DNA of 37,242 nucleotides from an uncultured Methanosarcinales archaeon (GTDB taxonomy: Archaea > Nanobdellota > Nanobdellia > Woesearchaeales > UBA119): positions 1-37,242 of the forward strand of contig CAZTMQ010000002.1 of assembly GCA_964615385.1 (NCBI GenBank), written 5' to 3'. The position numbers and the translations under genes were made by a program. The notes beneath the pieces are model-generated. The model was not told the origin of the DNA, ran no database searches, and worked only from the letters and a program-made list of their open reading frames with translations. Each line of letters opens with the position of its first letter. Position 1 is the first letter of the stretch. Positions 11,294 to 37,242 of this stretch are shown piece by piece.

Positions 11294-11553
11294 TTGATTT
11301 CATGAATCCGTCATTCGCATACTTTGGTCAATAGAAAAGCATACCTCGTTTTTCAACACGAGGACTCGGTACGCTTTTTTGTAATCAACAACCTCGCTGA
11401 ATACAGCACATGCTTTTATATTACCAACATACCTCGCCCTTTAGGGTGAGGTTGTTGATTTTTTAAGCCAAAGTAAGAATAGACGGATTCATGGACGAAA
11501 AACCTCGACTATCCACGAGATACCTCGACATTTATGCCGAGGTTTTTCATTTT
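11294..11553 (+). repeat. Structured repeat element, copy A (long form); possible ncRNA or cis-regulatory leader
   Basis: It shares both flanks with 26075..26204. The left arm GAATCCGTCATTCGCATACTTTGG (11304..11327) pairs with CCAAAGTAAGAATAGACGGATTC (11468..11490). About 135 nt lies between the arms and contains extra hairpins (CCTCGT/ACGAGG; ATCAACAACCTC/GAGGTTGTTGAT). The 3' module ACCTCG-N10-CGAGGT is followed by TTTTT. Confidence 0.8.
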
Positions 11554-11598
11554 AAAAAATTCAACAAAGTGAAAATTATTTTAAAGAGGTGTTTTAAG

Positions 11599-11973
11599 AT
11601 GAAAACTAAAAGCCCAAAGGGCACAACAAAGAAAAAGGCAGCTAACACAACGCTCAAGCAGGCCACAAAAAAGGTAGTATTATCAAAGCTTTGCGAGGAT
11701 GTTGGAGAAGATAAGAAGTTTTTAGTTGCAAATGGAGAGATCCTCTCAAATATCTGGGACCTAATCCATCTGCTGGACCATGTTGATGATTACACATTTT
11801 ATCATCACGTAAATGATGAAAAGAACGATTTTTACAATTGGATTAAGGAGATGTATGGTGATGGGGAATTTGAGAAGGTCATACTTCCAATAAGAAACCC
11901 AAAGGAATTAGAAATTGCAATCTTGAAGTATATAATCAATATGCTTTCAAAGGATAAGCAATTTAGCCTATAG
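11599..11973 (+). CDS. Small protein: lysine-rich N-terminus plus recurrent FxLxNG...HHVN..NDFxxW domain
   Basis: ATG 11599 follows AGAGGTG. The 5' part of track ORF 11491 lies inside the non-coding repeat element. Domain sequence: KKFLVANGEILSNIWDLIHLLDHVDDYTFYHHVNDEKNDFYNWIKEMY. Confidence 0.7.
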   Translation: MKTKSPKGTTKKKAANTTLKQATKKVVLSKLCEDVGEDKKFLVANGEILSNIWDLIHLLDHVDDYTFYHHVNDEKNDFYNWIKEMYGDGEFEKVILPIRNPKELEIAILKYIINMLSKDKQFSL

Positions 11974-21415: not shown

Positions 21416-23144
21416 CTTGTCCTATGTTGTCGTCTTGTCCTAATGTTTCATCAGGGGTTGAATGTTGCTGATCTTGAGTTATGGACAAATTATCATTCTT
21501 TTTACTTTGTTTATTTTGTTTATTTTGCTTTACTATTGAATTTTCTATCTCCATTAATTCTTTACTAAGCATCTGCTTTGACTCATATGCTTTTCCTAAG
21601 AGATAAAGATTTGAGATTATCCTTTTTAGTTCGGGATAACTTAAAGCAAAGGCCTCAAATGGCTTATCAGAGCGTAAACGCTCTATATTTATCAAAAGAT
21701 CTTCTTCAAGCCCTTTGGCATCCTTATTCTCTTTGTATATCAAATAAAGCTTTAACATGTCCTTATATATTTCAAAGAGCTCTGGAGCCTTAGAAAGTGC
21801 CTCTGAAAGCTCACTGTTTTGGCCTAATTGATATATATCGTTGGCAATTTCTGATTCAGTCCTCAAAAGCTCTTGATTAGCTATCTTTATGAGGTTTTTA
21901 ATAGAAACGTAATGGGTGTTAAATAAAAGTCTGACCCTCCTTATCTTTTGAGCTTCATCGTATGTGAAAAATTTTATAAAAATGGCTATAACTAAAGGCG
22001 AAAGCATTAGCAAAAAGATTAAAAGCCAAAGATTTTCAAAGTACTCTTTTGGACATAACGCAAAGAAATAATGATATAAATATATGATGACAGAGATTAT
22101 GAGAAATATCGCTATGAATATCTTTGAATTTGTGATAGCCTTATATTTTAGTACTGCTTTTTTTATCTCATCAAGCTTTTTGTTTTTTTCCAAAAGCTTA
22201 AGCCTAAAATGAAGCCTTGCTATTCTCAATGTGATTACACAAAAAATAATTAGATAAAATACGATGGAAGGCAAGCTAAAGAATCCTAATCTTAGCTCAC
22301 ACTTTGATATAATCCCTAATGGTCTTTCTTCTTCAACTGTCCTATTTGTATAGTTATGTATAGGAGTTTCATTAAAAACTATCTTCTCTTCATATATGCA
22401 AGGTAAAATTATATCAGGCATATTTTCTGTGGTGTTACAGTTATTTAAATCGATACACTCTCTAACTTTTGTTCCATTTGGAAAGCATTCGCTCCATTCA
22501 GAGCACACCCACTTCTCCTCGCAGAGTGCCTCTTCAATTGGCAGAGACTCAGGAACGCCTGAACCAAAATCACTACCCGCTCCACCTGCGCTACTGTCTC
22601 CACCACCTTCGCCACTACCTCCCTGGGAAGGTGGCTTATCTGGGGTAACAGGGCATTCACCACAATCCTCTGGGCAAGTCACACAGCTTTCAAACGATCT
22701 ATCACAAAAGCCGTCCCCACACACTAAAGGTGGAGAAACAAGATTTACTTCCATAAAAGTCCCACTATACCATCGAGAAAAATTAAAGGTTTGATTGGTA
22801 GCATTAAGAACTGTTGCAGGAAACGTTCCAACCTTGAAATATATTTGCTCATTTTCAATCGGGCCTAAATCGCCATAATTCTCGTCCGCGCCCCTGCACG
22901 TCATCGTTCCATAATATCCAAGGTTTTCAACTAAAAATTTTCCACACATATTGCCTCTTGAATCGTAGGCAGTAATCGGTGTCCCTGGGGGCGCGGGCAT
23001 TCCGTAAAGCCTTGCAAAGCCATAATACTCTGTAGGAAGCGGTGGAATTGAAAGGGCAAATTTCGGTAAAATTAACAGTAAAAGGAAAGCTAAAGCTATG
23101 CAAAAGAGGCTCGCTTGATTTGGCTTTGAGGTTAGTCTTCCCAT
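21399..23144 (-). CDS. Multi-pass membrane protein with Cys-rich ectodomain and coiled-coil cytoplasmic tail
   Basis: Met 23144 (MGRLTSKPNQ + hydrophobic stretch) is preferred over the track start 23183. It has Cys clusters CGDGFCDRSFESCVTCPEDCGEC and CEEKWVCSEWSEC, a Gly/Ser linker and several hydrophobic helices. Its 3' end overlaps the queH start. Confidence 0.6.
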   Translation of the reverse strand: MGRLTSKPNQASLFCIALAFLLLLILPKFALSIPPLPTEYYGFARLYGMPAPPGTPITAYDSRGNMCGKFLVENLGYYGTMTCRGADENYGDLGPIENEQIYFKVGTFPATVLNATNQTFNFSRWYSGTFMEVNLVSPPLVCGDGFCDRSFESCVTCPEDCGECPVTPDKPPSQGGSGEGGGDSSAGGAGSDFGSGVPESLPIEEALCEEKWVCSEWSECFPNGTKVRECIDLNNCNTTENMPDIILPCIYEEKIVFNETPIHNYTNRTVEEERPLGIISKCELRLGFFSLPSIVFYLIIFCVITLRIARLHFRLKLLEKNKKLDEIKKAVLKYKAITNSKIFIAIFLIISVIIYLYHYFFALCPKEYFENLWLLIFLLMLSPLVIAIFIKFFTYDEAQKIRRVRLLFNTHYVSIKNLIKIANQELLRTESEIANDIYQLGQNSELSEALSKAPELFEIYKDMLKLYLIYKENKDAKGLEEDLLINIERLRSDKPFEAFALSYPELKRIISNLYLLGKAYESKQMLSKELMEIENSIVKQNKQNKQSKKNDNLSITQDQQHSTPDETLGQDDNIGQDERNE

Positions 23145-23821
23145 GTTAATACCCAATAAACATCTTTTGTAACATTTATCCAATATCCCTTGCCAGGAAC
23201 AAAATACTCAAGATCCCCACCAGTAATGTTGTCATATGTAAGCCATCCTTCATCATATGATACAACCTTTGTAAAATCATTCTTTATTGATTCAAGTGCT
23301 GATGTTACGTTCCTAGTTTCTATGGAAGGATACCCTACATAATTCCAGCCGGTGTAAAGCTTTATTGATGTAGTGGTGAATCTAAGCCCTTCTCTAAAGT
23401 ATGTTCCATTTTCATTCATGTAAACGTAATATCCTTCCTTTCTGTTTAGCCTGTCAAATCCTTGCACAACCCAATCAGGAAGGCTTGGGTTATAGCTATC
23501 CCATGAATCATTTCTATCTGTTGGATTATATCTAAAAAAATAAGAATAATTTAGCGATTCGTTGCTTGCATTAGTAAAGCTCTCATTTATTGTTCCAACT
23601 CCTGTTTCACAATAAAAAGAAACAATATTCATTCCTTCTTGCAATTCCACAGTGCAGTTTTCTGGAGGGGTTTCATATATATAAGCGCTGGTAACAGTAT
23701 TTCCTGTAATCTTATTTATTACTTCCAAAAAGATTGGAGAGCTAAATATAAACACAACAGCTAAAAGGATTAACACAATCAGAATAAGAAGCAAGGTGAT
23801 GTCTTTTTTCAGCTTAATCAC
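23132..23821 (-). CDS. Signal-anchored secreted protein, sequon-rich
   Basis: The probable start is GTG 23821 behind GAGGAAAAGG, giving KLKKD followed by a TM helix. The track ORF extends to 23875. GWNYVGYP and PGKGYWINV motifs are common in archaeal surface proteins. Confidence 0.55.
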   Translation of the reverse strand: MIKLKKDITLLLILIVLILLAVVFIFSSPIFLEVINKITGNTVTSAYIYETPPENCTVELQEGMNIVSFYCETGVGTINESFTNASNESLNYSYFFRYNPTDRNDSWDSYNPSLPDWVVQGFDRLNRKEGYYVYMNENGTYFREGLRFTTTSIKLYTGWNYVGYPSIETRNVTSALESIKNDFTKVVSYDEGWLTYDNITGGDLEYFVPGKGYWINVTKDVYWVLTWED

Positions 23822-23981
23822 CCTTTTCCTCTTTAAAATCAAGATACCAGCGATTCTTTGATTTGTCATATACAAATATAACAGAATGCTTTTTTTTAAG
23901 GTCTAGCGGAAATAAAAGCGGCATAGGGATTGTTGTTTCATATGAACTGCCCCTAGAATAAAGTTTTCTTTTAATCTCCAT
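23814..23981 (-). CDS. Small (55 aa) possible AbrB/SpoVT-like DNA-binding protein, absent from the ORF track
   Basis: Hand translation: MEIKRKLYSRGSSYETTIPMPLLFPLDLKKKHSVIFVYDKSKNRWYLDFKEEKGD. The RK..S.G.S..TTIP pattern resembles swapped-hairpin AbrB-type domains. Its stop overlaps the downstream GTG start (GTGATTAA). Confidence 0.35.
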   Translation of the reverse strand: MEIKRKLYSRGSSYETTIPMPLLFPLDLKKKHSVIFVYDKSKNRWYLDFKEEKGD

Positions 23982-24169: not shown

Positions 24170-25945
24170 CTAAAGCTTTTCACCGCATTTTTTGCAGTAT
24201 TTTCTAACAATAGGATTTTTGTAGCCACACTTTTTACATTTCTTCTTTAGGAGCATTAAAAGCAAGAGTACAATTATTAGCACGATTACAATTATTATCG
24301 TGAAATCAAATGCCGCATATTTGAAATCGTATAATCCTTCTTTAACCTTTATTAATGCGTTTTCCCTTTCTCCATAGATTACCTTGACTTTCACCTGAGG
24401 ATTTTGAGGGATATCCAGTTCAGTCATTGTTGTTTGTATTGGGATTGTTATTGTCTTTCCAACAGGAACCAGGGTAATTCCGTCAGCACCTACTATCAAA
24501 AGTTCACCATTAACATCAAGGTCATGTATCTCTGCTGTTACATAAGCATCAACAGTCCCCACGTTTTTTACTTTAACCAAGAATCTGCTACCGCTCTTTG
24601 CATAGCTTACATCTATAATATCAATTTCTGCCTCATCAAATATGCTTACCCGCTCAACTTTTATTATCTTTTGAAGTGTTTGCTCTAAGGATTTAGGAGA
24701 CTCTCCATATATTGTGTTTATTTCTAATGTAAGATTATCTCCAACAAGCTCTATTTTGTTTCCATCTGCATCAACAAGAGGGTGTATTGTTGTCTTATAG
24801 CTATTTGCTTCTATATATTCAGCAGGGGATTCATCAGGGATTACAACACTTTTTTCTTCATCAGTAATAGTTAAGAGCAGTGGATGGAAATAAGCCCCGA
24901 TTCTCCCAGGATTATGATATGTAATTTCAAGATTATTTGTAGCAGTATTAATAGAAGCAGTGACTATTTCAAGGCTTAAGGGATATGTTGGGATAGGAAA
25001 TCTATCAAGATCTTCAACTTGAGCAACAGCTCCTTGCGGCACCCTTGCCCCTTGCCCGAACTTCACAAAGACACTTAGGCCCGTCTGTCTTCTCACAAAC
25101 GTAGCTGTACCAATTAATTCGTTGCCTACTAAAGTTCCAACCTGAAGATCACTGTTTTTTATATAATCCCTCACCTGATCTGGAACATTTGAATAGCCTA
25201 TAAAAAGCACTGGATCCTTTCCTGCAACAACGCTATCTTCAATAAACTCTCCATTTGTAAGTATAGCCTGCCGTCTTGGCTCTCCATTAAGCTCTTCATA
25301 TAACTCCTGATATAGCTTTACAATCTCAATATTATTATCAAATCGATCTCCTGTATTTATTGTAATTGGATTATATTTTTCAAGCGCATCTTTAACCTGC
25401 CTTGCCACCTGACCATAGATTATTACTTCACTTGGTGAGCGTTCATCCATAGCCCGCACAAGTTGGTTTATGTTTCTTTGGTCAGCAAAAAGAACATAGT
25501 ATTTGCCAAGTAATGCGTATGGTGCAACAGAAATCGAGTTATACCCATAAGAAGGGTCTATTATTATGAACTTTTTTATGCTGGGAAGTAGCTCCAAGAG
25601 CTCCAAATTGCCATTTCCAACCTTAAGCTCCTGAACGTTGTCATACCCATCATTTTCAAGTATGCTCTTGTAATTTAATACATATGGGTTTGTTCTAGAG
25701 CTAATTATCTCAACAGGTGCCGCGCCTTTAGGAATAGAGTAAAGAATAATGGTTCCATGCCGTGTACTCGTGAGAAAATACCCTTGGTATCCATTAAGAT
25801 TAGCATAGAGCATTCCAGAATAAACATCCTTCCAATCTGCAGAGTTTATTAATACTCTTGTTCCCTGAGACTGCGCTAACGCGATGGAGGGCAGGCTAAC
25901 CAGCACTAAAGCCAGCATAACTAAAATTAAGCATCTTAACTTCAA
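24170..25945 (-). CDS. Secreted surface protein with C-terminal TM anchor and cytoplasmic zinc ribbon
   Basis: Sec signal MKLRCLILVMLALVLVSLPSIALA-QSQ. Three alpha/beta-like repeats are loosely reminiscent of cell-wall-binding modules. A TM helix (IIIVIVLIIVLLLLMLL) is followed by CKKCGYKNPIVRKYCKKCG. Confidence 0.65.
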   Translation of the reverse strand: MKLRCLILVMLALVLVSLPSIALAQSQGTRVLINSADWKDVYSGMLYANLNGYQGYFLTSTRHGTIILYSIPKGAAPVEIISSRTNPYVLNYKSILENDGYDNVQELKVGNGNLELLELLPSIKKFIIIDPSYGYNSISVAPYALLGKYYVLFADQRNINQLVRAMDERSPSEVIIYGQVARQVKDALEKYNPITINTGDRFDNNIEIVKLYQELYEELNGEPRRQAILTNGEFIEDSVVAGKDPVLFIGYSNVPDQVRDYIKNSDLQVGTLVGNELIGTATFVRRQTGLSVFVKFGQGARVPQGAVAQVEDLDRFPIPTYPLSLEIVTASINTATNNLEITYHNPGRIGAYFHPLLLTITDEEKSVVIPDESPAEYIEANSYKTTIHPLVDADGNKIELVGDNLTLEINTIYGESPKSLEQTLQKIIKVERVSIFDEAEIDIIDVSYAKSGSRFLVKVKNVGTVDAYVTAEIHDLDVNGELLIVGADGITLVPVGKTITIPIQTTMTELDIPQNPQVKVKVIYGERENALIKVKEGLYDFKYAAFDFTIIIVIVLIIVLLLLMLLKKKCKKCGYKNPIVRKYCKKCGEKL

Positions 25946-26277: not shown

Positions 26278-26465
26278 CTTTAATTTCAAAATATAGAAAT
26301 ATTTAAATAGCAGCTATGGCAAAAGCTAGCTGTGAGATTGCGTCCTATGAGAAGTTTTGCAATAATTTAGAAGGATTGCATACTTTTTCAAGGTCTTAGT
26401 AAAAAAAGTTAGAAAAAAAGATTCGCAGAAAAGTGATATCTTTTAAAAAAAGAAAAGAGATTTTT

Positions 26466-26627
26466 ATGCCTAAAAAACAGCTTAATGTTAGACTGGATGA
26501 AGAAATTCACACTAAGGCAAAGATAGTTGCAATTCTTAAAGGAAAAACTTTAAACGATTATATTGAAGAGGCCATTGTCAACGCCCTTAAGAAAGATGAG
26601 AGTATATCCGCTAAAATGAAAAGGTAG
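26466..26627 (+). CDS. Ribbon-helix-helix (CopG/Arc-like) DNA-binding protein
   Basis: MPKKQLNVRLDEEIHTKAKIVAILKGKTLNDYIEEAIVNALKK fits the strand-helix-helix pattern. It ends 19 nt before the 1095-aa gene. Confidence 0.7.
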   Translation: MPKKQLNVRLDEEIHTKAKIVAILKGKTLNDYIEEAIVNALKKDESISAKMKR

Positions 26628-26646: not shown

Positions 26647-29600
26647 ATGCAAGCAAAAACAAAGGAAAGGATTGGGAAAATAGGGTTTAAGGCAATTACC
26701 ATTATCGGGGTGATGATGTTTTTATGCCTTATCCAATTGGGAAGTTCGTTTGAGTTTGCTATCTCTTCAGAAAGTCCAAATATATATGAAGATGAGACAC
26801 TTATTTTAAACCTTAGTATTTTAGAGGTAAATGGGACCCTTAACTTTACAAAAAATGTAAGCTTTGGAGAGCTAAATAAGGTAAATGAAACTCTCTTGCA
26901 ATTCAACTGGATTCCTGAGCAAGCATTGCTAACAAATAAAACAAATACATTCAGCGTACTTTTTAACGTATCAGATAACAGTTCATCGCTTAGTAAAGAA
27001 GTTACCATTACCGTTACTAAAAGAAATGACCCGCCTCGGATAATAAATTCTACTCTTGGAGGGCTTATTTACCAATCAAGAGCAGAGATATTTTTAGAAT
27101 TGGATAGACAATCCGTTTGTAAATATAGCCTTTCTAATAAGAGCTATAGCTCTATGGAATACACTTTCAATTCTGATGAAAGCAAAATAATCCACAATAC
27201 AACAACGCCTTTTATGTCTCAAGGCACTAAAAGAATCTATATTTTGTGCAGGGATTTTTCAGAAAACTACATGGAAACGCCACATGTGATAACCTTTGAT
27301 GTGAATCTTGCGCCAACTGCAGAAATCTATCTTGAGCCTTCTCCACCTCTAAAATCTGAAAGAGTATATGTTGAACTAATTGCATCAGAAGATCTTGCAA
27401 GCGCACCTGAATTAAGTTATATATTTGATGATGACTCAAGCCCTAAGATTGTATCGTTAGTTGGATCTAAAAGAAGATGGGAAGGTTATATGATAATTAG
27501 AGGAACCAATATTGAAAGAGTTGGTAGCTTCTCATTTAAGGGTGTCGATTTAACAGGGATTGAAGGTACTGAGATTACAAAGGGAAAATTGTTTTTAATA
27601 GATACAAATAAGCCAGGGCCTGTCCAAAGCATTGAGGTTACAAACCAGTACGATAGGACCAGGATCGCGTGGGCATACTCCCTTGAAAAGAATTATAATA
27701 TTGTCGAATACAGAATTTATAGAAGAGTAGATAGTGGGGGAGTGGATTATGTTGACTACTATAAAAGTACCTCCAATAACTATTTCTATGATAAGGACGT
27801 AGAATTCAAGAAGAGCTACTATTACAGGGTAAGTGCTGTTGATGATGCTGGAAATGAAGGAGAGCTTTCAAAGGAAGTATTTACCACTTTCATCCCAGAT
27901 TTACCTGAAGAAACTGTGGAAAATACTAATTCAGAAGAAGAGTACAAGTTAAGCCCAGCACTACAGATTGCTTTAGAAACAAAAATTGATGCGGTTGACA
28001 AAATAATTTTAGATCTTGAAAAACAAGAGGAATACTTCAAAAGGATTACTGGCACAGAGAATATTGAGGTTATTCAATCATTAGGGCTTATAAGCCAAGT
28101 TGCCTTTGCAAAAACAAAAGTGGAAGAGATAAAAGAAGACCTTGTTAATTTAAAATTGCATAACTTATCTGATGAGAACTTTGCAGACTCAGTGGATATG
28201 CTTTTAGCACAAGCTGAATTAGAATTCAATAAAGCACCATCCAAAATTACACTAATAGACTCATCCAGCTACCAGGAGTTTATTGATGAATCACTGATAA
28301 AAGAAATAGCAAACGAATATATCGATGCTGAAGGTAACGATATTATAGCTCTTGAAGAGCTTTTGGAAAACTCAATTTCCTTGCAGGAACAAATAACAGT
28401 TAATGCTTTGCTTATTGAATCAGAGATTACATATCCTAACCAAACACTAAATGTAAAAACTGTAAAGAAAACCCTAAATGCCAGGGAAACTATTAATAAC
28501 GCGATTATAGTAGAATCACTTCCAAAAAGCCTAGATTATGATTTTAGTTCTATGATTATTGATAGCGAGCCACTCCTAAATGAAGCAAACGATATGGTTT
28601 GGGAAGAGCCAAAGTTATCAAAAAAGACTATAGTGTATTCATTAGTGGATTATCCAGATTTCACAACGCTTAAAGAATCTAAGCTTGTTGTTCTTGGCAT
28701 AAAAAATGACGAAACTAATGTTTCAGATATTACAGGGCTTGCAATTTCCGAATCACAGGAGAAGATGAGCCCTTTGATAATTCCAATTATTATCGGTATC
28801 ATCCTTGCGGGCATATTAGGCGTTTATTACTTTGTTTCTTCAAGAAAGGATAACGAAAGCCAAATATCAAATCCATTTAACAGAGCAGAAAAAGAAAGCC
28901 TAAAAGAATTGCTAACCGATTTTCACATCGGCAAAAGAAAGCAATCTTATCCAAAGGCAAATGAAGATAAGAAAAAGCTTTTAAGAATTGAAGAAGAGGA
29001 AGTTGATTACAAAAAAAATAGTGGCTACGTATTTGATAAGAAGAGCGTTAGAAATACCCTAAATGAAACAGAATTGCTTGAATCTGAGCTAATTGATTCT
29101 ATCAAAGGAAAAGATTTGGATTATGATGGCGCTCATGAGCCAGCAATTGAGAAAAATAGATTTGGCTCCATAACTCAAAGCAACAGCAATCAAAACATTA
29201 ATACTAACAATAGTGCGTTTAACATCCCAAAAGGACCTACACCTGATCTGGATATACATAAAATATACCAACATATTTTAAAGTATAAAACAGCAGTAGA
29301 AGGGGGAAAAGATATCAATATTAAAGAAATGCAAGAGATAAAAGAAACCCTACAAAAAATCAAATCTACCTGTGATGAAATTGATAAGGCAAGGGTTGAA
29401 AGCTATACTGAAAAGGCAAAGAGCTATCTAAAAGAGACCTTAAAATATCTAGAGAGCATGGAATTTTCAAAAGATGTAAAAATAAAAGAAACAGCAACAA
29501 AAAGAAAGAAAAAATCACTTATTCAAAAGTCAAAACTAAGAGATTTAAGCTATATTAAACCCAAGAGAGCAAGGAGAGCAAGACTTCAGCCCGATAATAA

Positions 29601-29934
29601 CAAGGCGTTTAAAGACACATCAAGGCAAGTCGATAAGCCAAACTCCAAAGAACTTAAAGAGCGCCAAATAATACAAAAAATAGATATTCATCATATGGCT
29701 CCAGAAGATAAATTCTTTTCTCTTCAAAACGGAATTAGATTAAGAAATATTAATGAATTAGTAGACTACCTTGCTGTAATTGATAAGGAGTTATTTTGGC
29801 AACATGCAAACTTCTCAAAAAATGACTTTGCAACATGGATTAGGGATGTTTTTAATGCAAAAGAGCTTTCAAATGAAATAGAAAGGGCTCTTGACCCAAA
29901 AGAGATGAGAGAAAGAATAATTAAATTCTTTTAA
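26647..29934 (+). CDS. Large bitopic surface protein: Fn3-containing ectodomain, TM helix, cytoplasmic tail ending in the recurrent domain
   Basis: N-terminal signal/anchor, an NDPPRI cadherin-like motif, and a fibronectin-III-like block (YRIYRR...YYYRVSAVDDAGNEG). The TM helix is PLIIPIIIGIILAGILGVYYFV. A ~350-aa K/E-rich tail ends in DKFFSLQNG...FSKNDFATWIRDVF. Confidence 0.75.
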   Translation: MQAKTKERIGKIGFKAITIIGVMMFLCLIQLGSSFEFAISSESPNIYEDETLILNLSILEVNGTLNFTKNVSFGELNKVNETLLQFNWIPEQALLTNKTNTFSVLFNVSDNSSSLSKEVTITVTKRNDPPRIINSTLGGLIYQSRAEIFLELDRQSVCKYSLSNKSYSSMEYTFNSDESKIIHNTTTPFMSQGTKRIYILCRDFSENYMETPHVITFDVNLAPTAEIYLEPSPPLKSERVYVELIASEDLASAPELSYIFDDDSSPKIVSLVGSKRRWEGYMIIRGTNIERVGSFSFKGVDLTGIEGTEITKGKLFLIDTNKPGPVQSIEVTNQYDRTRIAWAYSLEKNYNIVEYRIYRRVDSGGVDYVDYYKSTSNNYFYDKDVEFKKSYYYRVSAVDDAGNEGELSKEVFTTFIPDLPEETVENTNSEEEYKLSPALQIALETKIDAVDKIILDLEKQEEYFKRITGTENIEVIQSLGLISQVAFAKTKVEEIKEDLVNLKLHNLSDENFADSVDMLLAQAELEFNKAPSKITLIDSSSYQEFIDESLIKEIANEYIDAEGNDIIALEELLENSISLQEQITVNALLIESEITYPNQTLNVKTVKKTLNARETINNAIIVESLPKSLDYDFSSMIIDSEPLLNEANDMVWEEPKLSKKTIVYSLVDYPDFTTLKESKLVVLGIKNDETNVSDITGLAISESQEKMSPLIIPIIIGIILAGILGVYYFVSSRKDNESQISNPFNRAEKESLKELLTDFHIGKRKQSYPKANEDKKKLLRIEEEEVDYKKNSGYVFDKKSVRNTLNETELLESELIDSIKGKDLDYDGAHEPAIEKNRFGSITQSNSNQNINTNNSAFNIPKGPTPDLDIHKIYQHILKYKTAVEGGKDINIKEMQEIKETLQKIKSTCDEIDKARVESYTEKAKSYLKETLKYLESMEFSKDVKIKETATKRKKKSLIQKSKLRDLSYIKPKRARRARLQPDNNKAFKDTSRQVDKPNSKELKERQIIQKIDIHHMAPEDKFFSLQNGIRLRNINELVDYLAVIDKELFWQHANFSKNDFATWIRDVFNAKELSNEIERALDPKEMRERIIKFF

Positions 29935-29960
29935 GCCAAAATAAAGAAATATACTGGCTT
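29933..29960. terminator. Hairpin between convergent genes (candidate bidirectional terminator)
   Basis: AAGCCA-N16-TGGCTT spans the gap between the stop of the 1095-aa gene and the stop of the 298-aa gene. Confidence 0.3.
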
Positions 29961-30856
29961 TAAGGTGCCGTAGCAGTAAATCTCACAGTTCCTGTACAAA
30001 GGCCAAATGGGTTTGGTGGAACATAAAGTTGCCAATGAGTGATCCATGTCTCAGGGTTGCTTGCCTCAGTCGGCTGGGGAACTGTCATTCCCATATCCTT
30101 TCCAACCTCATCAAGCACGGTCTTATCCGCCCAGGCCACCAGATCAGCAACTGAGAATCTTTGATATTCTACTGAAATATTGTCTCCATGTTCACACACA
30201 AGGCCAAGACCATCACCTTCAGTTAAGCCATAGCCTAATACAGTAACGTTAATATCCATATTTCCAAAATTTGTTACTGTTGCGTTTATCTCTTCACTAG
30301 TATCCGTAACACTTAGGTTTCCGTAATCTATTACATCAGTTACATTAAGAGCATACAAAGCATTTATTGAAGTAGTATTATTGGCAGTATCTGTAAAATT
30401 ATGAGCATCAATCACGGTTACATTGCAATTCCAGCTCCCGTTATTGGCAAAGTAATATACCTCAAAACTGCAAGAGTAATTAGCCCAATATTCGCCATCA
30501 TTACTTATCTCTTCGCAGGATGCGTTTGTATAATGTACATTTCGGTCATCAGGATCCTCTGAATTATTAAGATAATAGTAGAATGTAGCATTCACGTTGC
30601 TAATATCACCAAAGCCGTTCCAATCACGAATGGTAGCGTTACAGGTTACTGTTGTAATGTTTCCGGCGTTAAGAACTATATTTTGATCAACATCCACCTG
30701 AAAAATCTCAGGAAATGCATTCGTAATGTTTACCTGTGTCGTTACATTAACATGCTCGTAGTTATAAGCGCCTGCAAAAAGCACAACTTGCAAAAAAGGC
30801 AAAGCCAAAGCTAACATTAACGTGCTAATGATTAAAATCTTTGAAGATGATTTCAT
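29960..30856 (-). CDS. Secreted sequon-rich beta-protein (P3), Cys-containing Ig-like repeats
   Basis: Sec-type signal (LMLALALPFLQVVLFAGA) and dense N-x-S/T sequons. It is the last gene of the three-gene minus-strand operon. Confidence 0.68.
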   Translation of the reverse strand: MKSSSKILIISTLMLALALPFLQVVLFAGAYNYEHVNVTTQVNITNAFPEIFQVDVDQNIVLNAGNITTVTCNATIRDWNGFGDISNVNATFYYYLNNSEDPDDRNVHYTNASCEEISNDGEYWANYSCSFEVYYFANNGSWNCNVTVIDAHNFTDTANNTTSINALYALNVTDVIDYGNLSVTDTSEEINATVTNFGNMDINVTVLGYGLTEGDGLGLVCEHGDNISVEYQRFSVADLVAWADKTVLDEVGKDMGMTVPQPTEASNPETWITHWQLYVPPNPFGLCTGTVRFTATAP

Positions 30857-30887: not shown

Positions 30888-31670
30888 TTAGGCTCCTATC
30901 TCAGCATAAAAATAGTACGCTGTTGTGTCACCCACCTTATCGGGAACCATTATCTGAAAGTCTGCTATTGTTTCGTTATTGTAACTTTGCGCACCTTTAT
31001 TGATAGGAGTAGCATATACTGTACTTTCTGAACTTATCAAAAGTATGATAGGATAAGATGCACTTGCCTGATCTTCTGCCGTATCATTTACATAAGTGCT
31101 TGTTGTATTACATGTATTCTCAGTAATAGTAGTAGTGCCAACAACAAGTTGTGGATGAAGAGTACTGTTAAATGTTTTATTTACGCTATCTACAACAGAG
31201 GAGTTAAAGCCCATGTATGTATCTTCCCCTTCTATATGGGTAAGGTTTGCGCATTCAACCGCTATGTCCCAGTCGATTGAACCATTTCTAGAAACGTAGA
31301 CTTCACCAGTCAAATCCTCTATTGCCATTGACCACTCGAATATTGATTTACCTGAAGAATCATCTAAAGATAGCGCACCAGATAAATTTCCTACATAGGC
31401 CTTCCACCGATCATTTTGCTGAACAACATCAAGGTCCATAGTAGTAATGGTACCCCCTGCATCGCTTCGGGAGGGCGCTGGAGTATCTGATTTACTATCA
31501 GTAACATTATTGGATATTGAAACCCCTGTAGGCGCAGCACTCGTTAGACCTACAAAGGAAAGTATAAAAAGGAGTGAAATAAAAATTACTCCTACGCAAA
31601 AACAAGTCTGAGTAATAGCCACCTTACAGCGATTCTCGCAGGGTTTTTTTGGATTTTTGTTACCTGTCAT
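30888..31670 (-). CDS. Secreted sequon-rich protein (P2), paralog of P1
   Basis: Hydrophobic signal anchor ending in LTSA-APTG. It aligns with P1 through GNLSG, GEVYVS and VECA blocks and ends in ADFQIMVP...YYFYAEIGA. Confidence 0.7.
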   Translation of the reverse strand: MTGNKNPKKPCENRCKVAITQTCFCVGVIFISLLFILSFVGLTSAAPTGVSISNNVTDSKSDTPAPSRSDAGGTITTMDLDVVQQNDRWKAYVGNLSGALSLDDSSGKSIFEWSMAIEDLTGEVYVSRNGSIDWDIAVECANLTHIEGEDTYMGFNSSVVDSVNKTFNSTLHPQLVVGTTTITENTCNTTSTYVNDTAEDQASASYPIILLISSESTVYATPINKGAQSYNNETIADFQIMVPDKVGDTTAYYFYAEIGA

Positions 31671-31742: not shown

Positions 31743-32516
31743 TTATTCAATCTCTATCCAAAAATAGTATCTCGTGGTCACTGTGTTACCGAGCTGGCCA
31801 TTTTCTGCAACTAACATTTGGAAATCATAAAGCCCACCATCATAACCCGCTTCATCATCCCTTTCTCCTGATTGGTCATCCTCAAGGATAGCTGTAAAAA
31901 TCAAGGTGCTATTGGAATCGCTTGAGAGCAAGACAGCAGGGAAATTTGTAGCTTGCGATACATTATTCTGGAAGGTATAAGTGGTTCTACACCCAGTAAG
32001 ATTTGTAAATCCCACCTGAAACATAGCATGATCGGTTGCATTGTACGTATCATTCAAATCATCGTAATCTGAGTGAAGCATACCATAAAATGTATGCCAT
32101 TCATCAATATATGTTGCGTTATCTATTGGAGCACACTCAACAGTTGTCCATGAAATGGTATTATTTACTGAAGCAAACACCTCACCCTGTGGCTCCGCAA
32201 CAGCCCAATCATAAAACCTAAATCCTGTGGAATCCTCTAAAATGATTGTACCCGAAACATTTCCAAAAAAGCCCTGCCACGATTTTGTTGGAGAAACACC
32301 AGTGATTGTTAATTCTGTAAGATTTCCCGCAATCGCATCCACGTAATCCGGCTGATACAAACTTGCGTTAGATGTTTCACTTCTAACTGTACTAACATTC
32401 TCAGCGCCTAGTGGTACGTTAAATCCCGAATCATCTGCCCAAGCCCACGTACCAAACAGTACTAGGCTCACTAAAATTCCCATTGTGAACAAAACATCTC
32501 TTCGTTTCATTTGCAT
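31743..32516 (-). CDS. Secreted sequon-rich protein (P1), paralog of P2
   Basis: Classic SPase I signal (LVLFGTWAWA-DD) with GAGGTG before the ATG. It has GNVSG, GEVFAS and VECA blocks and the terminus YDFQMLVA...YYFWIEIE. Confidence 0.7.
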   Translation of the reverse strand: MQMKRRDVLFTMGILVSLVLFGTWAWADDSGFNVPLGAENVSTVRSETSNASLYQPDYVDAIAGNLTELTITGVSPTKSWQGFFGNVSGTIILEDSTGFRFYDWAVAEPQGEVFASVNNTISWTTVECAPIDNATYIDEWHTFYGMLHSDYDDLNDTYNATDHAMFQVGFTNLTGCRTTYTFQNNVSQATNFPAVLLSSDSNSTLIFTAILEDDQSGERDDEAGYDGGLYDFQMLVAENGQLGNTVTTRYYFWIEIE

Positions 32517-32968
32517 TACACCTCAAACATTCTTATTGAATTTAGACTATTCTCAATAAAGTCCATGACTTTCTATATACCTTTTGCTATACTCATATAT
32601 AAATGTTTCTAAAAATAGAGATTTTAGCACAGCAAGATAGTGAATGTATATAATATGCCACAGGAGTATTTTTTCGTATTTTTGCCAAAAAGAAATCTCG
32701 GAATATTGAGATTAGAAAATGTTTCTCCTTCGCTTCTCTCTTCCACTGCAAAAACATATTTTAGAATGGCTAAGAAGATTGCCGTTTTCCCAACTGAAAA
32801 GCTAGAATTATGGTTTTTTTATTATACCCCTAAAAATCCCACTTTAAATATGCTAAAGAATTATCTTTAAAGGCAAGCATTTTATTCTCGTGAGAATTGA
32901 ATTAATGTGATTACTGTTGCCAGATTAAAATAGATTCAAAGAAAAATTATTATTAGATATACTTATAC

Positions 32969-33937
32969 TCAATATAATATACCTACAAGTATCCTTTGGA
33001 CTGCATCAAATCTTACCTTTTCAGGGTCTGACACCTTAAGATTGTCACCCTTGGTAATAGCATACCAACCATCTTCATCGAAGCCTGTTTCTAAGACTCG
33101 GTGAACTATGACCTTGTCATTATAAGTATAACTGATAATGTCTCCCGAATGTATATCGTCAACTGAAGCAGGTACTACTTCTAACCCCAATGAATCTGAG
33201 GTAATTGTAGGAAGCATAGAACCACTCTTCCCAAATCTCGCCAATATAATATTCTTAGCCTCAATAGTAACATAATTGGGCTTCACAACAATAGCATTTG
33301 CATTTATTCTATGGCTGGGTCCAGGAGAGTTTAAAAGCCCAATCCTTTTTATCTCTTCAAAAAGTTCTTCGTTTTTATCCGCAAGCTCTTTTAAGGCAAG
33401 ATCACTATCAAAAAGCTTTTCATTTAATGAACGTATCATAAGAGTTTGCGCATTACTTTTGTCATTCAAGGATAAGAGTAAACTATAAGTCGAAGAAAGC
33501 TCATTTTCTAAAACGCTAATCTTTGAGGTATAATAACCTTTTTGCATAAATAAAGCTACAAAAAGCATTGCATAAACTAAAAACCAAATATATGAAAAAA
33601 CCTTTGTGTTTGGCCTGTTTTTAACTGCATTAATAAAGGAGGAGTTATCCTTAGAATTCATTCCTTTAAGCAAATTTATTCGCAGGGTTAGGATTCGCTC
33701 ATATCCTGATTTACTATTAGAGTTTTTTAGCTTAGAAACAAGCACATGGTCATCGTAGTTATCTAAAATCCAATCTAAAAAGAAATTTGGGTTCGTAAGA
33801 GTATGTATTTTGAACTCATATTCACTCATTGCCTTAAGGCTTGAAAGAAGCTCTTCATAATTACGTACAAAGCTTCCATCTCTAAGCTTTAGCCCTTTAC
33901 CATATTTCACATCCTTAAGGAAAAAAGACCTCTCCAA
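32969..33937 (-). CDS. Type I signal peptidase (S26B, archaeal/ER/SipW type) fused to N-terminal recurrent domain, TM helix and coiled coil
   Basis: The C-terminal catalytic module has SGSMLPT (Ser nucleophile), VHRV (His) and KGDN. The N-terminus GLKLRDGSFVRNYEELLSSLKAMSEYEFKIHT..NPNFFLDWI matches the recurrent domain. The TM helix is VFSYIWFLVYAMLFVALFM. Confidence 0.8.
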   Translation of the reverse strand: MERSFFLKDVKYGKGLKLRDGSFVRNYEELLSSLKAMSEYEFKIHTLTNPNFFLDWILDNYDDHVLVSKLKNSNSKSGYERILTLRINLLKGMNSKDNSSFINAVKNRPNTKVFSYIWFLVYAMLFVALFMQKGYYTSKISVLENELSSTYSLLLSLNDKSNAQTLMIRSLNEKLFDSDLALKELADKNEELFEEIKRIGLLNSPGPSHRINANAIVVKPNYVTIEAKNIILARFGKSGSMLPTITSDSLGLEVVPASVDDIHSGDIISYTYNDKVIVHRVLETGFDEDGWYAITKGDNLKVSDPEKVRFDAVQRILVGILY

Positions 33938-34128: not shown

Positions 34129-34422
34129 ATGAGAAATTTCTTGTCGGATTGTGAACCGGAAAGTGCATTTTGGTCAACTAATGGGGTTGTTTGCAGAAAC
34201 CTAAATGAGCTTTTGCTTTGCATAAAGGGCCTTAATGAAAGCGACTTTAGATATCACGTCAATCAAGACAACAAAAAGAATGATTTTGCAAAATGGATTT
34301 TAGAGGTTATTGGAGATGAAGTTTTGGCTAGGGCACTATCCGCAGTATTAGATAAGGACTTATATGCTGATATCATAGAACAAAGAATGAAACACCTCGA
34401 GTCGGATTATAAAGCTTACTAA
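34129..34422 (+). CDS. Stand-alone recurrent-domain protein (97 aa)
   Basis: ESAFWSTNGVVCRNLNELLLCIKGLNESDFRYHVNQDNKKNDFAKWILEVIGDE is essentially only the domain. Confidence 0.65.
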   Translation: MRNFLSDCEPESAFWSTNGVVCRNLNELLLCIKGLNESDFRYHVNQDNKKNDFAKWILEVIGDEVLARALSAVLDKDLYADIIEQRMKHLESDYKAY

Positions 34423-34440: not shown

Positions 34441-35598
34441 CTAAAATTCTCGAATAATCTTTATCATTTCACTAGGGCTCTTGGCATTTTTTATATGATC
34501 CGCAATCTCACGATAGGAAAATACATGCTCAACCCACGTAGAAAAATCATTTCTCTCCTCATTAACATGGTGCCTAAAAACTTCTTCATCCATCTTTGAA
34601 AGCTCATATAACAAATCCTCTACGCTATAAAGCAAAACCCCATTTTGAAGCCGAAATGCCTTATCAGAAGTGGTCTTTTTTCCAAGCATTCTGAATTTTT
34701 CAGCATTTCTAATAACATTCTTGAATCGGGCAAGCTTTTTTTCAATCTCGCTTTCCTTCTCAAGTAAAAGGTTTCTAGCACTCTCAAATTCCCTGCTTCG
34801 TATAAGCCACTCAGATTCGAGTTCTCTTAATTCTAAAAGATAACTATATACCACATCATCAATATCCTTCTCGCCTAAGAAAAAATGCCTCCCGCTTTTA
34901 AGTGATTCATGATAATCTTTCATTTTATGCAAAAGCCCAGAACTAATAGTTGAATAAAGCTCGCTTTTCTCCTCGTTAAATCTTCTTTCTAGCTCTTTAA
35001 AAAAGGAAATAGAGGCCCTTTCATTTTGGGCTTGCATTCTTTCATCAATCAAGTTTGTTTCTTTAGGATTATTATTTCTGTCAAAATTCCATTTTTTTGA
35101 TTGGGAGCTATCTTCAAAACTGTTAGACTCTAAAGGATTTGTCCCTTTATAGACTGAATTGCTTGAATTACTGCGATAATTATCTTCATTTTTCTTATAA
35201 AAATCAAAGGGATTATTAGTTTCTCCCGATGATCGATTTGAGTTCCCAACTGTGTTTAACCTGGAATAATCATAAGGCTGGCTCTCAGTTGGTCTCGTAC
35301 TCTTGGAAGAATCTGCATTTTCATCAACTGAAATACTTATTCCTTTGATCTCGGGGCTCACCAGGTTCTCAGGAAGCCTTCTTGGTTCGTTATGTTCATT
35401 TGAACCACTAAATCCACGATTTGTCCTTTCAAGATTTTGCCCATCAGACATTTGAGATGGTCCAATTGGGTCTTTGGTGTAATCCCCCCTATCAAAAGCC
35501 ATATTTTTATCCATTGTAGTATCAGGAAGACTCGGAGGTACATCTAAAGAAACAGATTTATCTTTCCCCTTACCATTAAAACCTAAAAACGAAACCAT
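34441..35598 (-). CDS. Cytoplasmic protein: disordered N/S-rich region, coiled coil, C-terminal recurrent domain
   Basis: No signal peptide or TM helix. About 190 aa are low-complexity and the middle is helical. The C-terminus DKAFRLQNGVLLYSVEDLLYELSKMDEEVFRHHVNEERNDFSTWVEHVF is very similar to the tail of the 1095-aa protein. Confidence 0.65.
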   Translation of the reverse strand: MVSFLGFNGKGKDKSVSLDVPPSLPDTTMDKNMAFDRGDYTKDPIGPSQMSDGQNLERTNRGFSGSNEHNEPRRLPENLVSPEIKGISISVDENADSSKSTRPTESQPYDYSRLNTVGNSNRSSGETNNPFDFYKKNEDNYRSNSSNSVYKGTNPLESNSFEDSSQSKKWNFDRNNNPKETNLIDERMQAQNERASISFFKELERRFNEEKSELYSTISSGLLHKMKDYHESLKSGRHFFLGEKDIDDVVYSYLLELRELESEWLIRSREFESARNLLLEKESEIEKKLARFKNVIRNAEKFRMLGKKTTSDKAFRLQNGVLLYSVEDLLYELSKMDEEVFRHHVNEERNDFSTWVEHVFSYREIADHIKNAKSPSEMIKIIREF

Positions 35599-35755: not shown

Positions 35756-37242
35756 TTAGTTAATCTCCACATAAAATGCAAGCTTACTATTCCCCGCTTT
35801 ATAATCTCTAAGCATCGCCGGAACCCTTATCTCGTAGTCGTAAGAACCGTATTTGCCTTCAGAATTTGGATTTATTTGGGTAATAAACACCACATCTTCA
35901 TCATCTCCCGTATCATACTGAAGATTGCCCTTATCATCATCCTTATCCCATAAAATACCCGTTTTAAAATTTGAATTATTCGTACTATCAACTATTGGAA
36001 CGTCATTAATAATGCCTGTTGACAGATTAAAAGAACCTACCTCTTGAGGGCTCTCGGTGCCTTCACCCCAGATATTTTTTATGGAATCACTAAAATCAGT
36101 GGTTCCAAGATTCTCATCTAGATTTGAGAAATCCTGTGCAGGATTACTATCTATAGTTTTTCCTAAGGGTATCAGATTTGAAAATAAAAACAGGCTATCG
36201 TAATCCGCAACTAATATGTTTCCCGATTGATTTGACAAGTTTGAAAAATCTAACAAAGTCTTATTATCGTATGTTGAGAGAACAAAATCAGTCGAAACAT
36301 TTCCATAAAAATAATGATAAAGCTCAACTTCTATAGTGTTATTTGCTTCATTATTAGAGTAATCTGACTCGTTCAAAAGCTCATCAGGGTTTACCACCAC
36401 AAATATATTATTCTTCCCTGCACTTAGAGAGTAACTGGTGTTGATTGTTAAAGTTTCTCCCTTAATTAGAGAATTAATGGGTAGATTTTCACTAATCATT
36501 GTTCCACCCAAATCAGGGTCTCCTTTAAAAAACTGAACTACAAATGATTCATTTGCATCAGTAAGCCCAAAATTAGAGATATTTGCAAATACTGTAATAT
36601 TATTTCCTTCAACCCTTAACCCTTCTGAGAACCAAATTCCTGTTTCATTGACTGTTAAATCTGGACCAGTGATATTAAGCGTAAAGTTGCTTTCAGCAAA
36701 CCCAGAATTGCCTTCATTATCATAACATAAAACATTCCATTCATAAAGCCCTAAACCCATAAAAATAGATTCAAAAGTATTACTAGCATTATTTGTTGGG
36801 CTAGTGTGCGTTTCATTAGAATCAAAAGCACCTGCCTTGCCAAAATAAAGAGTACAGTTATCAAGGTTTATATCGTATGGAATGTATGTAAAATTCAAGG
36901 CCCCTACACCTTTCTCAGTTTCATTTTCTGGAAGAATCAAAGTAATATTTGGGGCAGTTGTATCTGGAATAATTTCAAAAGTAGTGTAACCCGAAGAGTT
37001 CGAATAAGACTCTTTAGATACAAAAGAAACTATAGAATAATTAGCATAACTTTGGTCTTTTGTAGTCCAGTTAAATTCAGTAAGCCCAGATGTGTTTGTG
37101 TAAGAATCATTTCTATAAACTAAGATCTGTTCTTCACCAACTCCTGTTTGGTTTATCTGGGAATTAAGTCTATAGGTTACATTCATTTCAACCCAATATA
37201 AACGCATAGTGCTTGTTCCAGAACCACTTCCTTTAGTAACCC
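35756..37242 (-). CDS. Large adhesin-like surface protein, 5'-truncated by window edge; CARDB-like domain plus P1/P2-type C-terminal domain
   Basis: The reading frame stays open upstream of Met 37207 to the window end (..VTKGSGSGTST-MRLY). It has a CARDB-like block (NISNFGLTDANESFVVQFF...VVVNPDELLNESDYSNNE). The last ~190 aa (35759..36328) carry FYGNVS and end in YDYEIRVP...LAFYVEIN, like P1 and P2. Confidence 0.7.
   Translation of the reverse strand, partial: VTKGSGSGTSTMRLYWVEMNVTYRLNSQINQTGVGEEQILVYRNDSYTNTSGLTEFNWTTKDQSYANYSIVSFVSKESYSNSSGYTTFEIIPDTTAPNITLILPENETEKGVGALNFTYIPYDINLDNCTLYFGKAGAFDSNETHTSPTNNASNTFESIFMGLGLYEWNVLCYDNEGNSGFAESNFTLNITGPDLTVNETGIWFSEGLRVEGNNITVFANISNFGLTDANESFVVQFFKGDPDLGGTMISENLPINSLIKGETLTINTSYSLSAGKNNIFVVVNPDELLNESDYSNNEANNTIEVELYHYFYGNVSTDFVLSTYDNKTLLDFSNLSNQSGNILVADYDSLFLFSNLIPLGKTIDSNPAQDFSNLDENLGTTDFSDSIKNIWGEGTESPQEVGSFNLSTGIINDVPIVDSTNNSNFKTGILWDKDDDKGNLQYDTGDDEDVVFITQINPNSEGKYGSYDYEIRVPAMLRDYKAGNSKLAFYVEIN

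Follow-up and report, generated by a model that had tools for sequence, protein, structure and literature searches.

A stalked S26B-type peptidase with a cytoplasmic DUF5752-like domain, encoded within a conserved surface-protein gene cluster of an uncultured archaeon

Type I signal peptidases (SPases I) are usually minimal, membrane-hugging enzymes, and to our knowledge those of prokaryotes usually have no partners on the cytoplasmic side. Why, then, should such an enzyme carry an additional domain inside the cell, and which proteins would it process? The question is raised by a 37,242-nt stretch of contig CAZTMQ010000002.1 (assembly GCA_964615385.1), which is called the window hereafter. One of its genes encodes a protein of 322 amino acids (aa) with the catalytic boxes of an S26B peptidase at the C-terminus and, at the N-terminus, a domain that recurs in other proteins of the window (recurrent domain, REC). 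Three genes for secreted proteins, P1, P2 and P3, follow on the same strand. A previous interpretation made from the DNA alone (the sequence-only reading) had proposed a dedicated processing enzyme for P1-P3 that is regulated or positioned from the cytoplasm. The protein is laid out as follows.

32969..33937, minus strand: peptidase open reading frame (ORF), 322 aa, composed of REC, a transmembrane (TM) helix, a coiled-coil stalk and an S26B domain; full-length homologues are P0002-P0009 and P0153-P0190
33644..33937, minus strand: REC domain, residues 1-98, predicted cytoplasmic, DUF5752/OrfY-like; matched by the REC hidden Markov model (HMM) at E=1e-31
33533..33601, minus strand: TM helix, residues ~113-135, single, predicted N-in/C-out; hydropathy peak at 111-132
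33341..33532, minus strand: stalk, residues 136-199, a predicted extracytoplasmic heptad-repeat helix continuing the TM helix
32972..33319, minus strand: S26B catalytic domain, residues 207-322, 116 aa, no C-terminal TM helix
33218-33220 (Ser240) and 33101-33103 (His279), minus strand: catalytic residues, with Asp287, Asp298 and Asp304 in addition

The explanation that we favour, and to which we would give about an even chance, is that this protein is a catalytically competent S26B-type membrane peptidase that is docked via REC and processes the surface proteins of the cluster. The enzyme class itself is already known. What is new is the cytoplasmic DUF5752-like domain, the extracellular coiled coil of conserved length, the loss of the C-terminal anchor and the recruitment into a surface-protein cluster.

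The motifs that had been named from the sequence are all in place: SGSMLPT at residues 238-244, VHRV at 278-281 and KGDN at 296-299. The NCBIfam model TIGR02228 (archaeal signal peptidase I) was matched with E=3e-11, at a score of 43.3 bits that lies below the curated cutoff of 51.85. Relatives scored 32-57 bits against the same model, and among ten that were tested P0008 and P0011 exceeded the cutoff; in the peptidase as in its relatives the match was confined to model positions ~36-120 of 158. A profile built from 29 homologues matched human SEC11C and SEC11A (7p2q, 7p2p) with E ~3e-7, and in this alignment the SM.P box of the serine, the HRV (IVHRV) box and the TKGDN..D box line up. Both NCBIfam and the SEC11A/C profile therefore assign the C-terminal region to S26B.

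Conservation within the family points the same way. When 1.84 billion cluster representatives were searched exhaustively with HMMER, 971 family members were obtained (E up to 0.001), from which 177 sequences were taken for the residue, length and stalk statistics given here; a word-indexed search yielded nine full-length relatives. Ser240, which lies in SGSMLPT, is conserved in 175 of 175 relatives, His279 and Asp287 each in 177 of 177, Asp298 in 176 of 177 and Asp304 in 172 of 175. His279 and Arg280 form the HRV box, with His as the general base and not the Lys of S26A and S24. A C-terminal TM helix was found in none of the 177 relatives, all of which end at the ...VGILY or VAIIY strand. By the profile matches and the invariance of these residues, the C-terminal 116 aa are a divergent but intact S26B (Ser-His-Asp) peptidase domain, in agreement with the sequence-only reading. 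A failure of profile searches to place this region in S26, by which that reading would have been refuted, did not occur.

Other searches were less favourable. With the full peptidase Pfam gave no S24/S26 match, and with its C-terminus alone it gave Peptidase_S24 at E=0.067 only. A single-sequence phmmer search of the peptidase against the PDB returned spurious matches only. Foldseek, queried with the whole multidomain AlphaFold2 model, listed SipA, SpsB, LepB, LexA and cI, all with E >0.01, and the matches of this model were partly Tudor/chromo barrels. A separate member of the family found by the exhaustive search, P0172 (297 aa), carries S26 twice in tandem and lacks REC; the catalytic His is missing from its first S26 copy (LLSRI instead of IHRV).

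Compared with the archaeal and endoplasmic reticulum-type SPase I (S26B; Sec11), the peptidase agrees in its boxes, SM.P, HR(V/I) and (T)KGDN...D, and in their order and spacing, and it shares the layout of a membrane anchor at the N-terminus and a catalytic domain outside the cytoplasm. It differs in lacking the canonical segment between TM helix and Ser and the C-terminal part including its TM helix, in scoring below the curated Pfam and TIGR02228 cutoffs, and in the cytoplasmic REC and the coiled-coil stalk that are added. In addition, ~105 residues separate its Ser from the TM helix, compared with ~15-20 in canonical SPases.

The gene starts with a TTG codon preceded by a Shine-Dalgarno-like motif, GAGGGGTGG, and the alignment of the full-length homologues begins at or near residue 1. 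The AlphaFold2 model, built with a 29-sequence alignment, has a mean predicted local distance difference test (pLDDT) score of 83. In it, REC (residues 1-98, pLDDT >90) is a beta-hairpin followed by five helices, residues 99-112 are disordered, residues 114-199 form one unbroken helix, residues ~200-212 are a linker with pLDDT 58-71, and residues 213-322 are an all-beta catalytic domain with pLDDT 74-94. The sole hydrophobic segment of the protein by hydropathy is residues 113-135 of the long helix. Beyond it, the best heptad register places hydrophobic residues at 14 of 19 a/d positions, so that the heptad stretch seen in the sequence-only reading is real and coincides with a continuous helix. 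The catalytic domain of an S26 enzyme must be outside, and across 43 homologues the N side of the TM helix has a mean of 3.4 Lys plus Arg residues, the C side one of 1.5. By these two points, the topology of the peptidase is N-in, with REC inside and the coiled coil and catalytic domain outside. The same reading had assumed a cytoplasmic extension of ~230 aa that included the coiled coil. This is wrong, as the TM helix separates REC from the coiled coil; ~110 aa are cytoplasmic, and the stalk lies on the catalytic, outer side, with which the charge bias agrees.

REC and the catalytic domain occur together in 43 of the 177 family sequences, all of which are 296-339 aa long. The survey of the fusion that had been suggested thus shows it to be recurrent, in at least 43 sequence clusters. 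The stalk of these 43 fusions is 57-77 residues long and the distance from the end of the TM helix to Ser is 87-110 residues (median 96), compared with 36-178 (median 66) in 120 unfused relatives; in the peptidase of the window it is about 105-108. REC-stalk-S26B is a recurrent, length-constrained design and no one-off. If straight, the 64 helical residues of the stalk would span ~10 nm, which is arithmetic and not a measurement.

A stalk of such constancy, among sequences only 30-40% identical, invites another interpretation. The protein may be a maturation or assembly protease mounted ~10 nm above the membrane, not a signal peptidase, that trims an N-terminal extension of P1 and P2 or aids their polymerisation. 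The distance of ~105 residues between the TM helix and the catalytic Ser and the lack of a C-terminal anchor throughout the family would suit such a role. The enzyme would then be a catalytically active equivalent of SipA (SipA/LepA type), the SPase-like pilus factor of Streptococcus pyogenes (PDB 4N31), which has an SPase-like fold and, like the peptidase, is genetically linked to surface-structure subunits. SipA was second among the weak Foldseek matches (E=0.019, TM-score 0.24/0.52). SipA, however, lacks the catalytic residues, whereas Ser, His and Asp are invariant in the peptidase family, and the catalytic boxes and their spacing are those of bona fide signal peptidases. Moreover, the flexible linker at residues 200-212 could let the catalytic domain reach back to the membrane, and the same domain is found in unfused relatives whose linkers are short (36-60 residues). 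We regard a stalk-mounted maturation protease as improbable, and return to it with P1 below.

What, then, is the role of the docking domain that we postulate in the favoured explanation? The REC HMM, built from the local copies of the domain, matches five proteins of the window, four of them in the surface-protein cluster, which bears out the statement that the N-terminal domain is recurrent. Besides the peptidase, they are the following.

34129..34422, plus strand: REC-only protein, 97 aa, divergent from the peptidase gene; Pfam DUF5752 at 28.9 bits, above the cutoff
34441..35598, minus strand: REC-tailed soluble protein, 385 aa, with a disordered N-terminus, a coiled coil and a C-terminal REC (HMM E=1e-35)
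26647..29934, plus strand: REC-tailed surface protein, 1095 aa, single-pass, with an N-terminal signal/TM segment, an ectodomain, a TM helix at 705-733 and a cytoplasmic tail ending in REC (HMM E=9e-33)
11491..11973, plus strand: fifth REC copy, in a 160-aa protein within a glycogen gene cluster

Pfam DUF5752 was matched at E <0.01 by nine of 12 REC copies. The peptidase's own copy had no Pfam match, being too divergent, and aligns with copies that match DUF5752. A joint REC profile matched OrfY of Thermoproteus tenax (PDB 4CSO) with E=6.5e-5. OrfY is the only REC relative with a solved structure and carries two REC repeats in one chain. The two share the motif ...F..H.....NDF..W(I/V)....D..LA...; OrfY is a soluble, two-repeat protein of ~210 aa, whereas the peptidase has a single repeat fused to a membrane protein. 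We infer that single REC domains may pair with one another, because OrfY carries two such repeats in one chain. In the literature, nothing specific was found on DUF5752, OrfY/4CSO or the signal peptidases of Woesearchaeota.

The 385-aa protein has orthologues in loci L001, L004, L087 and L088, and the 1095-aa protein in every syntenic cluster. Copies of REC are further found at the end of an ABC-type permease, of HerA-like ATPases and of adhesin-like tails. The 160-aa protein lies between the genes of a GH57 enzyme (9825-11075) and a glycogen synthase (12119-13921); REC is therefore not restricted to the surface-protein cluster.

The gene for the REC-only protein is a more constant companion of the peptidase than P1-P3 are. 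It is divergent from the fused peptidase gene in the window, L001, L095 and L122, and convergent with unfused S26 genes (215-242 aa) in L080, L119/L120, L127, L139, L144, L148 and L155. This fused-or-adjacent (Rosetta-stone) pattern argues for a functional link between REC and the peptidase that would be independent of the P1-P3 cluster.

The resemblance to OrfY suggests one further role, namely that of an S24-like self-cleaving or regulatory membrane protein from which the OrfY-like domain is released to regulate the cluster. PDB entry 4CSO labels OrfY a transcription factor, the C-terminal domains of LexA and lambda cI are among the Foldseek matches, and ~30 residues of beta-strand precede Ser, as in LexA. 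Yet the HRV box supplies an S26B His as general base in place of the Lys of S24, the protease and REC are placed on opposite sides of the membrane, and the presence of REC on the permease, the HerA-like ATPases and the adhesin-like tails points to a protein-interaction rather than a DNA-binding module. We consider such a release mechanism very unlikely indeed.

The favoured explanation supposes that the docked peptidase acts on the proteins encoded next to it.

32517..32968, minus strand: spacer between the peptidase and P1, 452 bp
31743..32516, minus strand: P1, 257 aa, secreted, 11 N-glycosylation sequons, signal ending ...AWA/DD (AWA|DD)
30888..31670, minus strand: P2, 260 aa, a paralogue of P1 (32% identity), 10 sequons, signal ending TSA|AP
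29960..30856, minus strand: P3, 298 aa, secreted, 18 sequons, signal ending AGA|YN

As the sequence-only reading had stated, all three carry signals of the SPase I type, with an n-region, an h-region and small residues at -3 and -1 (AWA|D, TSA|A, AGA|Y), a pattern that their orthologues share. P1-P3 had no Pfam or NCBIfam family match. P1 has more than 120 homologue clusters, all annotated as hypothetical and without a Pfam family. Its AlphaFold2 model (pLDDT 77.6, predicted TM-score 0.73) has a beta-rich core.

The first ~50 residues of mature P1 (~28-78) are conserved, with P35, G37, A61, A63, N65 and T67 nearly invariant, and they have low pLDDT and no predicted structure. A strand-donating extension in a polymer would be expected to look like this, and such a donor-strand-type segment counts in favour of the maturation protease considered above, although the filament or polymer remains hypothetical. 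P1 was also tried as a subunit of the TasA, ABP or thread-like kind and rejected on the present evidence: there was no family match, the P1 family profile matched no sequence in the PDB, and Foldseek with the P1 model found no solved relative (best E 0.09). The analogy with TasA and archaeal filaments that had been drawn before is thus left without structural support. A 247-aa ORF at 23132-23875 was rejected as a third P1-like protein.

SipW of Bacillus subtilis, whose gene lies next to those of TasA and TapA, is, like the peptidase, of the S26B type, and both have secreted proteins with SPase I signals as genetic neighbours. The likeness extends to the idea of a second, substrate-linked signal peptidase, in the present case beside a putative housekeeping enzyme. 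The peptidase is no SipW equivalog, matching the SipW model (NCBIfam NF046067) with E=3e-6 and 27 bits against a cutoff of 190. SipW has neither a cytoplasmic domain nor a stalk, and, in contrast to the SipW/TasA system, P1-P3 have no TasA/camelysin family or fold and their genes are apparently promoted separately.

This separate promotion is suggested by the spacer. It contains a promoter-like block, TTTTTAGAAACATTTATATATGAGTATAGCAAA, at ~32575-32620, followed by the GAGGTG ribosome-binding site of P1; the TATA-like block TTTATATA lies ~100 nt upstream of the P1 start codon. In a DNA alignment with L001 and L007, the spacer is conserved only in a block of ~35 nt that contains TTTATATA and in the ribosome-binding site. 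Since these are its only conserved parts, P1-P3 appear to have their own, probably strong, promoter. The TTTATATA block is likely the promoter from which P1-P2-P3 are highly expressed as one unit, with ~70-100 nt of 5' leader. Rfam and tRNA scans of the spacer and the window gave nothing relevant, and a bacterial promoter/terminator scan is uninformative for an archaeon. Co-transcription of the peptidase with P1-P3 would not be expected, given the promoter-like block in the spacer and the position of the peptidase gene on the opposite strand in L004. The claim that the gene sits directly upstream of P1-P3 thus holds for the strand and not for the immediate adjacency.

Is the fusion nevertheless tied to P1-P3? 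Orthologous clusters were found with 63%-identical peptidases (L001-L003, L007, L093) and with 34%-identical peptidases (L004-L006/L009). Common to both sets are the fused peptidase, P1, P2, P3, a giant CARDB protein, the REC-tailed soluble protein, a REC-tailed surface protein of ~1000 aa and a small ribbon-helix-helix protein. The small REC protein is present in the 63%-identity loci and was not detected in L004. Between the two sets P1 is 62% identical, well above the peptidase. In L036 and L100, the fused peptidase occurs together with proteins having P1-like or P3-like domains. Among non-redundant loci, genes of the P1/P3 family lie in the examined flanks of five of ten fusion loci and of two of 129 unfused loci (Fisher p=1.2e-5). 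The two unfused loci are L011 and L013, in which a same-strand array encodes a P1-like, a MarR-like, a P1-like and a P3-like protein and a 404-aa gene, with a short S26 gene last; this unfused S26 gene belongs to a different clade in a low-resolution neighbour-joining tree. Thus, the association of the fusion with the P1/P3 cluster is statistically strong and not universal.

The main alternative is that the protein is the general housekeeping SPase I of the organism and that REC and the stalk are a lineage-typical decoration without specificity for P1-P3. The occurrence of the fusion in unrelated, housekeeping contexts, the syntenic clusters without a local peptidase gene (both described below) and the promoter-like element that P1-P3 have for themselves all fit this alternative. 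So do the scores of the family, which are near the archaeal SPase I threshold, and the name 'signal peptidase I' that the JGI gives to two members. In addition, a scan of GTDB found no second S26 locus in three fusion-bearing genomes; this absence is weak evidence, as the scan used two peptide patterns that several short-form sequences lack and as metagenome-assembled genomes (MAGs) are incomplete. On the other hand, the enrichment of fused genes beside the cluster (p ~1e-5) and the REC that four cluster proteins have in common count against a housekeeping role, and paralogy is common in the family, with tandem pairs and with two loci in one MAG, which makes a second enzyme plausible. We hold a housekeeping role to be possible, if on the doubtful side. 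No other S26 domain was found in the 37-kb window.

Tandem short-form S26 genes occur in several Woesearchaeota genomes (L040, L074, L081), and the copies of these pairs fall in two deep clades of the tree, indicating what would be an old paralogy within the peptidase family. Two S26 loci, L028 and L073, are in one MAG. The phylogeny of the catalytic module that the sequence-only reading had called for gave two different pictures. In a neighbour-joining tree of the GTDB loci, of low resolution, the four fusion lineages group together, whereas a larger tree (175 sequences, 117 catalytic columns) scatters the 43 fusions into 19 groups. Monophyly of the fusions, suggested by the small tree, was dropped, and the trees are taken as uninformative. 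The related loci are nearly all from MAGs of Woesearchaeota, Pacearchaeota and Nanoarchaeota, and by this sampling the peptidase subfamily seems almost confined to such genomes. Some MAGs (L007, L009, L013 and other 'binchicken' MAGs) are titled 'Saccharibacteria bacterium' or 'Methanosarcinales archaeon'; in gene content and nearest relatives they look Woesearchaeota-like, and the titles are probably mislabels.

In the explanation that we favour, the REC of the peptidase would pair with the REC of the 97-aa and 385-aa neighbours and with that in the cytoplasmic tail of the 1095-aa neighbour. Such pairing may bring the peptidase to the part of the membrane through which the glycosylated P1, P2 and P3 and the giant CARDB protein are exported, and the docked enzyme would there remove the Sec signal peptides of the cluster's surface proteins. 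The coiled coil may dimerise the enzyme, set its distance from the membrane, or both, and the short flexible linker would join the stalk to a compact catalytic domain without a C-terminal anchor. The earlier idea that the enzyme is positioned from the cytoplasm fits the REC domain that four cluster proteins have in common.

Several points weigh against this explanation. To the missing Pfam match, the subthreshold TIGR02228 score and the weak structural matches of the catalytic domain must be added that a rigid stalk would put the active site, ~105 residues past the TM helix, far from the membrane surface. The apparent promoter of P1-P3 separates them from the peptidase gene. No P1/P3 genes lie in the examined flanks of five of the ten fusion loci; L094, L095, L096, L099 and L122 have an aminoacyl-tRNA synthetase, an ABC transporter and other unrelated neighbours. 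L087 and L088 have the complete syntenic cluster and no S26 gene within 10 kb. The pairing of REC with REC is itself a proposal from sequence.

For the proposal of a dedicated enzyme the outcome is mixed: the enrichment beside P1/P3 genes speaks for it, and the unrelated contexts, which the sequence-only reading had itself regarded, in combination with a single SPase I in the genome, as pointing to a general enzyme, and the peptidase-free clusters speak against it. The peptidase is probably docked to the REC-bearing proteins of the cluster, and an exclusive dedication to P1-P3 is unproven. It is plausible that a REC-coupled peptidase was recruited into the cluster in several lineages and that the enzyme is not defined by the cluster.

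If this interpretation is right, these tiny host-dependent archaea would control from within the cell where proteins are exported and processed. REC would tie together a whole uncharacterised cluster of conserved glycoproteins, a giant adhesin-like protein and, in relatives, HerA-like ATPases. The cluster is a plausible candidate for the cell-cell contact apparatus of Woesearchaeota. The orphan DUF5752/OrfY fold would gain its first testable role, that of a pairing module.

Two other members of the cluster are listed below.

26433..26627, plus strand: ribbon-helix-helix protein, 64 aa, HicB/ParG-like, directly upstream of the 1095-aa gene; Pfam HicB at E=7e-9
35756..37242, minus strand: C-terminal part of the giant CARDB surface protein, frame open to the edge of the window; Pfam CARDB

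The pairing of the ribbon-helix-helix gene with the 1095-aa gene is kept in L001, L004, L087 and L088, and the 64-aa protein is a candidate for a regulator of the cluster. Orthologues of the giant CARDB protein are 2469 and at least 2778 aa long. In the protein of the window, the C-terminal ~189 aa (35756-36325) are P1-like: hhalign aligned 170 columns, covering the whole P1 core, with a probability of 58% and E=1e-4. Its terminal strand reads ...AFYVEIN and may be compared with ...YYFWIEIE in P1. The C-terminal module common to the CARDB protein and P1 may serve anchoring or assembly.

In related loci, L089 (2621-6304) and L036 (8452-12096) encode proteins of ~1220 aa in which a DUF87/HerA-type ATPase stands between a P1-like N-terminus and one or two copies of REC at the C-terminus; for the ATPase, a Pfam match is on record for L089 only. 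These fusions give a hint of an energised assembly machine in the related clusters. A HerA-like ATPase was not detectable in the window. Because P1-like domains end the CARDB protein and begin the HerA-type REC ATPases, the P1-P3 cluster looks like a modular surface-structure system. One could go further and take REC as a homotypic docking code that assembles a trans-envelope machine, with a glycosylated, non-type-IV filament or lattice of P1/P2-like modules outside, a new surface structure of Woesearchaeota-type DPANN archaea, and the S26 peptidase acting ~10 nm up as a maturase or polymerisation factor and not as a classical signal peptidase. We regard this combined picture as a long shot.

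Two further conserved membrane proteins of the cluster, without family assignment, are encoded at 24170-25945 and 21399-23183, both on the minus strand. One of them is a secreted protein of 591 aa in which a zinc ribbon comes after a C-terminal TM helix, and the other is a multi-pass protein of 594 aa with a Cys-rich ectodomain.

The gene content of the window is archaeal (ribosomal protein L15e, RNA polymerase subunit D, SRP54 and tRNA-Leu), and its G+C content is 32-40% over nearly the whole length. Archaea normally make archaeosine, not queuosine. The product of 18311-19366 (plus strand) matches QueA, S-adenosylmethionine:tRNA ribosyltransferase-isomerase, with E=2e-105, and that of 20780-21415 (minus strand) matches QueH, epoxyqueuosine reductase, with E=2e-53; these are bacterial-type queuosine genes on an otherwise archaeal contig.

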